64,000 bases of DNA from Eubacteriales bacterium (lineage in GTDB: Bacteria > Bacillota > Clostridia > Oscillospirales > CAG-272), in contig JAZSLM010000019.1 of NCBI GenBank assembly GCA_045535375.1, positions 10,871 through 74,870 of the forward strand, written 5' to 3'. The position numbers and the translations under genes were made by a program. A model generated the notes under the pieces. It ran no database searches. It saw only the letters and a list, made by a program, of their open reading frames with translations, and had not been told where the DNA came from. This document shows positions 6,090 to 6,407 of this stretch, piece after piece; position 1 is the first letter of the stretch; each line of letters begins with the position of its first letter.

Positions 6090-6407
6090 ACTAGTGGCTA
6101 GTGACTAGCGGAAGGTAGAAACGGCTCCGGCGGTTTTCCGCAGGAAAATGGAGGCGTAAGCCGACAAGACAGAGTCGAAATTTGCCGAAGGCAAATACTT
6201 TCTCACTGCGTTCGAAAATTATTTCAATAATTTTGTTTAGCTTTGATAAGATTTCGGACAGCTTATAATTTTACAACATAATAAAACGCTCTGGGTTTTA
6301 TTCCTCATAAAATCCAGAGCATTTTCTATATAAATGAAAATTTTCGAGCAAAGCGAGAAAATTATCCTTCACTAGCCACTAGCCACTAGCCACTAGCCAC
6401 TAGTCAC
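6090..6407. repeat. ~318-bp element bounded by inverted CTAGTGG / CACTAGC heptamer arrays (sibling at 40303-40604)
   Basis: Left arm ACTAGTGGCTAGTGACTAGCGG; right arm is 5 x CACTAGC. Inside are a GGCGGTTTTCCGNAGGAAAATGGAGGCG module, a terminator-like hairpin and ATTTTCGAGCAAAGCGAGAAAAT. Confidence 0.65.

Follow-up and report, generated by a model that had tools for sequence, protein, structure and literature searches.

Why should short tandem repeats with a stop codon in each unit stand, as inverted pairs, at the ends of genes? The question is raised by a 64,000-nt stretch of DNA from a Eubacteriales bacterium (assembly GCA_045535375.1, contig JAZSLM010000019.1, positions 10,871 to 74,870; hereafter the window), in which two intergenic elements of about 310 bp, element A (6090–6407) and element B (40303–40604), are bounded by arrays of seven-nucleotide units. 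A preliminary description of this DNA proposed that the heptamers are either the termini of a non-autonomous mobile element or all-frame stop pads that insulate genes. The first proposal proved to be its better half, and the stop pads its least supported part. In our preferred reading, the elements would belong to a lineage-specific family of foldback, imperfectly palindromic intergenic repeats of uncultured gut Eubacteriales and Clostridia, similar to miniature inverted-repeat transposable elements (MITEs), which would also supply gene-end terminators. We assign this reading a probability of roughly 0.5.

The arrays themselves are confirmed to be real and non-random. Tandem Repeats Finder (TRF) called nine arrays of period 7 with about three or more copies in the window (5356–5386, 6089–6108, 6370–6408, 27867–27899, 40304–40328, 40571–40603, 49844–49876, 55394–55416 and 55465–55502), compared with zero or one (mean 0.05) in 20 dinucleotide-preserving shuffles. 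At one per 7 kb they are about 10 times as dense as in related Clostridia loci, where 734 kb yielded about one per 67 kb. All nine lie between genes or overlap a gene end by at most 20 nt, as heptanucleotide long simple sequence repeats (SSRs) do.

The layout described for both elements was borne out by inspection of the sequence, with one correction in element A. From left to right, each element contains a (CTAGTGR)n array, AAGGTA, an AT-rich core with a long hairpin, ATTTTCGAGCAAAGCGAGAAAAT and a right (CACTAGY)n array; the right arms of the two are 84% identical over 91 nt. A hairpin had been described behind the left AAGGTA of both. It is present in element B, but in element A this usual arm hairpin is replaced by a 76-nt module (6122–6197). 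The left array of element A, CTAGTGG CTAGTGA CTAGCGG (6091–6111, plus strand), begins 10 nt past the stop codon of a PPIase gene (6078–6080) and leads into the junction AAGGTAG (6112–6118, plus strand), a Shine-Dalgarno-like RAGGTRA. The hairpin-rich 76-nt module behind it, also on the plus strand, has copies at 28233–28308 and, on the minus strand, at 23446–23521 and 29944–30019. The core hairpin (6288–6320), a 14-bp stem with AAAA on its 5' side and TTTT on its 3' side, resembles a bidirectional terminator and stands between the convergent PPIase and ftsH genes. The right arm is oriented on the minus strand. It comprises the hairpin ATTTTCGAGCAAAGCGAGAAAAT with its junction (6340–6369; read on the minus strand as AGTGAAGGATAATTTTCTCGC) and 5.6 copies of CACTAGC (6370–6408), that is, (GCTAGTG)n on the minus strand, the last unit of which holds the ftsH stop codon TGA (6404–6406, minus strand).

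Element B starts with 3.6 copies of CTAGTGR (40304–40328, plus strand) towards the 5' side of an argC-like gene, whose promoter-like site (40247–40219, minus strand) lies outside the element. The junction GAAGGTA with the hairpin AATTTTCGCGGAGCGAAAATT follows (40329–40358, plus strand). The core hairpin, TCTCGGATATT...AATATCCGAGA (40427–40466), is preceded by an A-run and followed by a T-run, and its stems are kept in the orthologous locus L493 and in L028 (L-numbers denote the compared genome or metagenome-assembled genome (MAG) loci, of which the relevant relatives are 8-kb draft MAG fragments). The right arm consists of the hairpin ATTTTCGAGCAAAGCGAGAAAAT with its junction (40541–40570, minus strand) and 4.7 copies of CACTAGY (40571–40603, minus strand); the outermost unit forms the stop codon TAG (40601–40603, minus strand) of a gene for a 1129-aa sigma/anti-sigma protein.

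Folded as single strands, elements A and B reach minimum free energies of −115.7 and −101.6 kcal/mol (z = −9.8 and −10.5), and the closing stem of each is the pairing of its two arrays. A scan for a stem-loop with a T-run and a preceding A-run classed the hairpin at 6288–6320 as terminator-like. That at 40427–40466, with an 11-bp stem, A6 before and T5 after, received no call because its loop is over the limit of the scan. These core hairpins are the only terminator-like sites between the flanking genes, and the element cores appear to be gene-end terminators, as predicted from their sequence. The idea of insulation thereby survives in an altered form, in which putative terminators in the cores, rather than stop codons in the arrays, would separate neighbouring genes. 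As the second arm lies past the terminator, pairing between the two arms is unlikely within one mRNA.

The arms of elements A and B are examples of a wider module, and at least 10 intergenic regions of the window are mosaics of common parts. From outside to inside, an arm consists of a tandem array, a junction of the form RAGGTRA ([A/G]AGG[T/A]RA) or AGAAAGATGCGA, and usually a 20–30-nt hairpin whose foot is AATTTYC/GRAAATT; an element is made of two such arms, inverted, on either side of a variable core. Across the window and Eubacteriales or Clostridia MAGs, 42 arms with the common junction and hairpin were found, and the hairpins carry compensatory changes, at one pair between C-G (23), U-A (19) and U-G (1) and at another between A-U (35) and G-C (4). 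In the register of the junction, the heptamer unit reads NNN-A-R-T-K, with A in 74, R in 76, T in 72 and K in 75 of 76 units at positions 4–7. Positions 1–3 are free and the ARTK core is usually AGTG, which gives unit types such as GCTAGTG, AAAAGTG, GCAGAGT(G), GAAGAGT(G), CAAAATG, CTAGTTG, TTAGTTG, AATGAAT and TCAGTGR. A second form of array has units of about 22 nt, each a 9–10-nt linker containing the ARTK core (AATGATAAT, AGTGATAAT, AGTTAAGAT or GTGATAT) and an 11–15-nt GC mini-hairpin. Heptamer arms are paired with heptamer arms or with 22-mer arms, and 22-mer arms also with each other. Minimal elements hold only a 15–20-nt AT spacer between the arms (window 5356–5547, L326 at 4236, and L376), and a subfamily of about 300 bp (elements A and B, L028, L039 and L021) shares a homologous core, in which a long hairpin has an A-run before and a T-run after it.

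Copies in unrelated surroundings point towards a mobile, or formerly mobile, family. Element B (40304–40603) aligns over its full length (306 nt, 74.5% identity) with L028 4424–4728, where the flanking genes are unrelated. At least two CTAGTGR elements lie on one 72-kb contig of the genome of L028, further family copies occur in L039 (686–1046) and L021, and other repeats are nested within element cores. The elements resemble MITEs in their inverted arms, their length of 190–330 bp, the lack of an open reading frame (ORF) and the presence of homologous copies at non-orthologous sites, this last trait being drawn from a few cases on draft contigs. They resemble REPINs in being inverted doublets of arms, and the larger elements fold closed through these arms.

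The 22-mer arrays tie the family to the Gut-1 RNA motif (Rfam RF01706), the consensus of which has three hairpins with GUGAAAU linkers between them (Weinberg et al., 2010; PMC2864571). Gut-1 was published as a candidate free-standing small RNA (sRNA), with no function proposed and found only in human gut metagenomes, and was graded as certainly RNA (PMC2864571). Matches to RF01706 in the window lie at 52017–52101 (53.2 bits), 31489–31565 (47 bits), 5457–5533 (37 bits) and 23262–23342 (35 bits), the first alone exceeding the gathering score of 50 bits; the covariance model gave no match inside 6090–6407 or 40303–40604 at E ≤ 1. Behind the hit at 52017–52101 stand GTTAAGGTAG and a hairpin, which is the junction module of the heptamer arms. 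The heptamer arrays of elements A and B are built of a Gut-1-linker-like unit with an AGTG core and have no hairpins between units, whereas linkers and hairpins are both present in the 22-mer arrays found at other places in the window. Since these 22-mer arrays score as Gut-1 and share the junction, the heptamer arrays correspond to a hairpin-less form of the Gut-1 array. The flanks of the Gut-1 seed sequences in the Weinberg alignment have a similar order, namely a Gut-1 array, a terminator and then inverted (AUUUUCA)n or inverted Gut-1. Judged by sequence, heptamer and Gut-1 arrays are alternative forms of one palindromic-element arm.

Comparison of orthologous loci revealed which parts of these arms are kept. 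The closest public genomes are uncultured Eubacteriales MAGs, namely SGB_266 (FtsH 95% at the amino acid level), SGB_892 (argC-like protein 93%), RGIG1801 and RGIG402. Past the mini-RNase III stop codon, the window has (AAAGTGW)n where L331 has (GCAGAGT)n, with an identical start, GGTAGTG. Past the PPIase stop codon, the three CTAGTGR units of the window correspond to four to five CTAGTTR units in L201 and to about zero to two degenerate units in L202, with the same hairpin behind. Heptamer and Gut-1-type arrays replace each other at two orthologous sites: the infB-operon terminator is followed by 22-mers in the window and in L299 and by (TTAGTTG)5 in L385, with the same junction and inner modules, and past ftsH the CTAGTGG arms of the window stand against arms of AGTGATAAT plus hairpin in L185. 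Between the sigma/anti-sigma and argC-like genes, both arms are (GCTAGTG)n in the window and (GACAGTG)n in L493, from the same TAGTGG stop start; the terminator stems are conserved, and the remaining element has diverged more than the neighbouring promoter. This spacer also contains a small hairpin-loop inversion upstream of the argC-like promoter, where a 16-nt segment within an AAAAA...TTTTT palindrome is inverted between the window (40270–40300, ATGATTATTTATTCAT) and L493 (2875–2905, ATGAATAAATAATCAT).

Overall, position, stop-codon boundary, period and AGTG phase are kept at orthologous loci, and the free bases and unit number turn over. The three variable bases change jointly in both arms, and arms of one element share idiosyncrasies, such as one interruption in both arms of L039 and an imperfect hairpin in both arms of L185. 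At two of these loci, the mini-RNase III gene end and the sigma–argC spacer, the elements are inherited and are not fresh insertions. Such data bear on whether the arrays are functionless slippage microsatellites, a by-product of polymerase stalling at the adjacent stable hairpins, with period 7 favoured as in most prokaryotes. The fast change, among close relatives, of copy number, as past the PPIase gene, and of the free bases would fit this explanation, as would the position of the arrays, which is always 5' of a hairpin; in most prokaryotes, moreover, no class of long SSR is more abundant than the heptamers (Mrazek, 2007, as cited in PMC4679880). However, fixed position, boundary and core together with the joint change of both arms are unlike random-phase slippage microsatellites. 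Between species whose neighbouring bases have diverged, the ARTK core is retained, in an unchanged phase to stop codon and junction, and the hairpin units of one array combine uniform linkers with different stems, which is unexpected from plain unit duplication. We regard functionless slippage as an improbable explanation.

Heptamers of this kind are also found far outside the clade and have a consistent polarity. Among the matches listed, (CTAGTGR)n arrays occur at more than 120 loci in many phyla, often as inverted pairs. We rejected the more than 120 (CACTAGY)3 loci as proof of a special heptamer, because 596 Gb with about 1,200 heptamer classes could yield as many. Polarity was scored by a long ORF ending at the 5' side of the array in sense only or at the antisense side only. 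By this measure, 110 CTAGTGR arrays from many phyla (among the matches listed) gave 55 sense and 9 antisense cases, and other heptamers, oriented by G>C, gave 25 and 1 in this clade and 20 and 6 in other phyla. In the window, inspection found an ORF at the 5' end of the G-rich strand in 7 of 10 arrays. The polarity rule is general and is already published for one repeat class, in which the 5' end of the G-rich heptamer strand adjoins the neighbouring ORF (Rehm et al., 2015); GGGAATC/GGGGAYT heptamers lie on the sense strand near the ORF on their 5' side, including less than 50 bp from stop codons (PMC4692102). Canonical terminators were found downstream of 8 of the 110 CTAGTGR arrays of other phyla among the matches listed, and a general link between array and terminator is therefore not indicated. 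Rho rut sites on the C-rich strand were considered as a resemblance and not adopted as an explanation; they fit sense-oriented arrays but fail for arrays facing 5' ends.

Three further observations concern these distant loci. Loci L001–L120 contain the side-by-side unit types CTAGGGG, TTAGGGG, CTGGTGA, CGAGTGG, CGGGTGG and GGGAATC. Inverted heptamer pairs around 30–100-nt cores are frequent there, for example in Brevundimonas (L034, L036 and L072) and Acidobacteriota (L009 and L075). The (CTGGTGG)n arrays of L001, L005 and L087 include the E. coli Chi octamer GCTGGTGG.

Do the stop codons matter in themselves? The preliminary description stated that each array places a stop in all three frames, which is true of eight of the nine window arrays on the ARTK strand; array 5356–5386 stops two frames within its TRF limits. 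Its statement that CTAG-based arrays stop both strands also stands, and array 49844–49876 does the same, whereas in the AGTGAAA and AATGAAT arrays the stops are limited to one strand. If selected as all-frame stop pads, the arrays would end translation ahead of the terminator, whichever frame a ribosome reads, and so insulate neighbouring genes. In favour of such a role, all nine window arrays carry forward-strand stops, the arrays precede the core terminator in the ~300-bp elements, and five genes terminate inside or at an array. Besides ftsH and the sigma/anti-sigma gene, these are the genes for mini-RNase III (TAG, 5355–5357, in or adjoining the array), argG (TGA, 27886–27888, inside an array that encodes its last 7 codons) and a serpin (TGA, 49862–49864, minus strand).

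The relatives weaken this explanation. Eleven of 19 heptamer arrays with the same junction (CAGAGTG, CAAAATG) have no forward-strand stop triplet, and since the commonest related unit, CAGAGTG, is among them, stop-richness is incidental. The stops follow from the core itself (AGTGA, TAGTG). Hairpin-bearing 22-mer arrays stand in for heptamers at orthologous sites, some arrays lie behind terminators, and with 3–18 units the arrays extend far beyond the ~11 nt required. Finally, CTAG-type arrays stop both strands and are nevertheless strongly oriented (55 to 9, as above), which stops alone do not explain. Selection for stop pads is thus very unlikely. The preliminary description further held that no described element family has the all-frame stop property. 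This did not hold, as intergenic TAACTGA heptamers interrupt every reading frame and overlap the ends of genes (PMC4679880), GGGAATC repeats are a described heptamer family (PMC4692102) and Gut-1 represents the hairpin form (PMC2864571). A literature search for the literal array sequences found no paper.

The mini-hairpins of the 22-mer arrays give conflicting evidence as to which strand is read. Units were taken from TRF-anchored arrays, which yielded 85 mini-hairpins in 29 arrays, 83 of them with a C-G closing pair. Of the 70 triloops, 57 are TNC on the forward strand, equivalent to GNA, and hence C(GNA)G, on the reverse strand; 14 of 15 tetraloops are TTGC or TTAC on the forward strand and read GNRA on the reverse. 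C(GNA)G is a very stable DNA mini-hairpin motif, known from d(GCGAAGC). Folding with ViennaRNA slightly favoured the forward strand in 17 of 21 arrays with RNA parameters and in 19 of 21 with DNA parameters. Loop identity therefore points to the reverse strand and nearest-neighbour energies to the forward strand.

Could the arms act as RNA? As cis-acting modules of 3' untranslated regions, or as Gut-1 sRNA, their ARUGR repeats might form a multivalent protein platform or protect mRNA 3' ends, with TRAP, HutP (UAG every 7 nt), Csp and CsrB-type sponges as models; arms would then occur as inverted pairs only because convergent genes each bear one. Gene context was assigned by codon log-odds, with a rough caller trained on those window genes that Pfam had confirmed. 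By this caller, 24 of 38 arms are in sense orientation past a 3' end. All six single arms of the window are so placed. The polarity across phyla (55 to 9 for CTAGTGR among the matches listed, 45 to 7 for other heptamers), the compensatory changes in the arm hairpin with one U-G among them, the Shine-Dalgarno-like junction AGGTGA, the fixed loops and linkers with variable stems, and the grading of Gut-1 as certain RNA (PMC2864571) are all consistent with this view. Against it, about one third of the sense arms lie downstream of an intrinsic terminator (window 23230, 31590 and 52120; L185, L311 and L313), and 14 of the 38 arms are antisense and face a gene 5' end. Moreover, unit type and idiosyncrasies are common to both arms of an element although a terminator lies between them, and the loop bias of the mini-hairpins is on the opposite strand. 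We consider a primary role as RNA modules rather unlikely.

The strict periodicity of the core suggests a protein partner, for which a double-stranded site is one candidate. The arrays could be operator-like sites for a protein that binds contiguous 7-bp repeats, as omega does, and that organises or silences intergenic DNA. An invariant 4-nt core that returns every 7 bp exactly, in direct as well as inverted arrays, with spacer bases that drift while cores stay, would suit such a protein, and on one strand several units are identical or close to the heptad of omega (AGTGATA in L185 and L305, AATCACT at 49858). Hairpin-type arrays at the same sites, with cores about 22 bp apart, are a misfit with contiguous cooperative binding, and the strong bias of the mini-hairpins in their loops and closing pairs suggests a single-stranded structure. 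No candidate protein emerged, and no protein search was made. Operator sites are, in our view, a doubtful explanation with little probability. The Fur-box half-site (TGATAAT in a 22-mer linker), Chi (GCTGGTGG) and recombination signal sequence (RSS) or CACTA termini were noted as resemblances only and are not used as explanations.

We return to the foldback, MITE-like family as the preferred reading. Arms behind terminators, arms facing 5' ends and co-evolving arms split by a terminator all favour foldback at the DNA level. The elements would have spread, now or formerly, as non-autonomous DNA elements via single-stranded foldback, in which the arrays would form the closing stem. Slippage beside stable hairpins may cause the arrays to grow and turn over, and one arm may be corrected against the other. 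Copies would persist at gene 3' ends because their cost there is small: with stops in many of the units, an element that enters a gene end lengthens the gene by just a few codons, and the stops probably render the insertion harmless. Some copies may have turned into actual terminators of genes. The periodic ARTK core implies recognition by a trans-acting factor, candidates for which are a transposase or HUH-type enzyme, or a repeat-binding protein. In a more speculative extension, which we think unlikely, heptamer and hairpin-spaced Gut-1 arrays might both be the platform of a single-strand-specific factor (HUH-type or a ring-shaped repeat-binding protein) that builds, copies or reads the arms; the polarity across phyla might then be the mark left by a single general process through which arrays arise or are maintained at gene ends, and not by plain slippage.

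Several points weigh against the foldback, MITE-like reading. Five aligned copies have no consistent direct repeat outside the arrays; array ends are ragged, so that a short target-site duplication could be hidden. No transposase, RAYT-like or recurrent gene was found near 45 element-bearing loci (8-kb MAG fragments), nor a transposase (no Pfam match) in the arm-flanked 1.8-kb segment 29773–31565. Three orthologous comparisons, all of old, inherited elements, contain no clean pair of filled and empty sites. The different context of the L028 copy could stem from rearrangement instead of transposition, and the comparisons rest on draft MAG fragments. An RNA-level role may also exist, given the sense orientation of 24 of 38 arms past a gene 3' end and the rating of Gut-1 as certain RNA by Weinberg et al. 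The proposal of mobile-element termini therefore holds in that the arrays are the outermost part of inverted arms, the family has many members and a copy exists in L028; it fails to gain support from target duplications, a transposase or the orthologous copies, which are inherited. Viral contigs gave 93 pattern matches, none with an array in front, and thus no sign of a phage-borne family.

Segment 29773–31565 has features of its own. Two inverted arms and 98-nt inverted modules surround a stretch of low GC content, in which gene 30478–31119 (plus strand) encodes a plausible membrane-like protein of 213 aa with no Pfam match, its own promoter-like TATAAT and an AAGGAGG ribosome-binding site (RBS).

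Other arms of the window vary in type and completeness. The minimal element 5356–5547 has a left arm of (AGTGWAA)n, AGTTGAGGTGA and a hairpin (5356–5422, plus strand), an AT spacer of about 15 nt, and a right arm of Gut-1-type 22-mers, AATGAAGGTAAC and a hairpin (5437–5547, minus strand). A single arm follows an intrinsic terminator at 23262–23388 (plus strand), with four copies of AATGATAAT plus hairpin, then AATGAAGGTGA and a hairpin (Gut-1, 35 bits). At 27867–27935 (plus strand), across the end of argG, 4.7 copies of AAAAGTG are followed by GGTGAGGTGA and a hairpin, and a 22-mer-type arm (29773–29841, plus strand) lies directly past the argH stop codon. The Gut-1-type arm scoring 47 bits (31468–31565, minus strand) is located past the terminator of gene 31644–32546 (minus strand). 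In element 49695–49876, a short left arm (TAGTTGT TAGTCGA AGGTGA and a hairpin) and a nested palindrome (49744–49826) precede a right array of (TCAGTGR/TTAGTGA)n with junction AGAAAGATGCGA (49844–49876, minus strand), which contains the serpin stop. The bona fide Gut-1 arm (51975–52101, minus strand, 53.2 bits) has three copies of GTGATAT plus hairpin, then GTTAAGGTAG and a hairpin. Two degenerate arms that adjoin each other have as their outer ends back-to-back (AATGAWT)n arrays (55394–55416, minus strand, and 55465–55502, plus strand); the second array borders the RBS of a GDPD gene, behind which stands a 22-mer-type arm with AATGAAGGATA and a hairpin (56279–56389, plus strand).

Further repeats are interspersed with these arms. 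A second repeat family, with ends AACAAGTGCGAACA... and hairpins CCTTCCCC(N)GGGGAAGG, occurs in the window at 17123–17450, 25978–26290 and 49744–49826, and in L201 (1–350) and L185 (6300–6560). It is nested in the cores of arm-bearing elements and is absent from the matching place in some relatives (30 nt in L385, compared with 1.2 kb in the window). Intergenic mosaics around argG, argH and neighbouring genes (27888–28403, 29782–30478, 23390–23760 and 36787–37160) contain the 76-nt CGGCTCCGGCGG...GACAGAGTCGA unit and GACAGAGTCAA...TTGNGCTCTGTCA hairpins in both orientations, with up to 97% complementarity. Region 51770–51911 has a 38-nt inverted repeat (GTAGGGACCGACGTCCTCGGCGGTCC...) with a 64-nt AT-rich loop; it is probably another palindromic element, and its match to a miRNA model, on both strands, is sub-threshold and chance-like. 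ORF 32565–35498 (minus strand, 977 aa) contains 10 or more diverged internal repeats, spaced at multiples of about 69 nt, and resembles a repeat-rich surface-type protein.

The elements have practical consequences as well. Contigs of the closest relatives end in or at an arm in L121, L201, L299, L304, L346 and L360, and arm elements appear to break short-read metagenome assemblies. They also appear to provide terminators for housekeeping genes, going by the predicted hairpins in their cores. The covariation of Gut-1 may reflect the shuffling of palindromic units instead of RNA function. For experiments, the family offers a core and a junction that are both defined, and natural variants that either have or lack stops and either have or lack hairpins. 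What is new here is the description of arms that are either a heptamer SSR or a Gut-1 array in foldback, MITE-like intergenic elements with predicted terminator cores.

How does this family compare with known systems? The window joins two puzzles, the heptamer SSRs of prokaryotes and Gut-1, an orphan RNA motif since 2010. Tandem heptamers have reportedly gone unexplained since the cyanobacterial STRR sequences of 1990, which we count among the long-SSR heptamers, as we do TAACTGA (PMC4679880) and GGGAATC (PMC4692102). Like the window arrays, long-SSR heptamers are intergenic, occur many times per genome, lie at stop codons with the G-rich strand as sense, and have the same flanking genes in related species with varying length and sequence; GGGAATC/GGGGAYT repeats, for instance, vary at the same loci between Xanthomonas species (PMC4692102). 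In contrast to them, the window arrays are tied to a junction and hairpin, form the arms of foldback elements, have an invariant 4-nt core, do not form G-quadruplexes and alternate with a hairpin form. As for Gut-1, its hits in the window form the arrays of arms whose junction and hairpin are those of the heptamer arms, and its seed flanks show the layout of inverted arms and a terminator core. However, the published motif was not placed in a palindromic repeat element, and the heptamer arrays have neither hairpins nor a Gut-1 score.

The omega repressor of inc18 plasmids, a ribbon-helix-helix protein, coats contiguous WATCACW heptads in direct and inverted orientation, with one protein per heptad, and is to our knowledge the only well-studied system in which contiguous 7-bp repeats are read in this way. 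Some window units match the heptad (WGTGATW on the reverse strand), which is a resemblance of sequence only. Omega sites are promoters and centromeres of plasmids, few per replicon, whereas the window arrays are chromosomal and lie at the ends of genes, with an extrapolated number in the hundreds, and have 22-nt hairpin units as their alternative form.

MITE-type and mosaic repeats of bacteria, such as ERIC, BOX, Correia and REP/BIME/REPIN, are small, non-coding, multi-copy intergenic sequences with inverted ends. BrickBuilt of P. gingivalis is a mosaic intergenic repeat with a minisatellite of about 23 nt (PMC4596501). The window family resembles such repeats in being small, non-coding and strictly intergenic, with inverted ends, a modular build, nested insertions and a strong single-strand fold. 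It differs in that the tandem repeats are themselves the outer termini, and no target-site duplication, parent insertion sequence or RAYT was found; REP hairpins are conserved in sequence, whereas the window family has variable stems with fixed loops and linkers. Like the window family, foldback (FB) transposons of Drosophila and other eukaryotes have long inverted arms made of short tandem repeats in variable number around a variable centre, and the arms of one element are more alike than those of other copies. They are eukaryotic and kilobase-sized, with coding regions in some copies, and no evolutionary link is implied.

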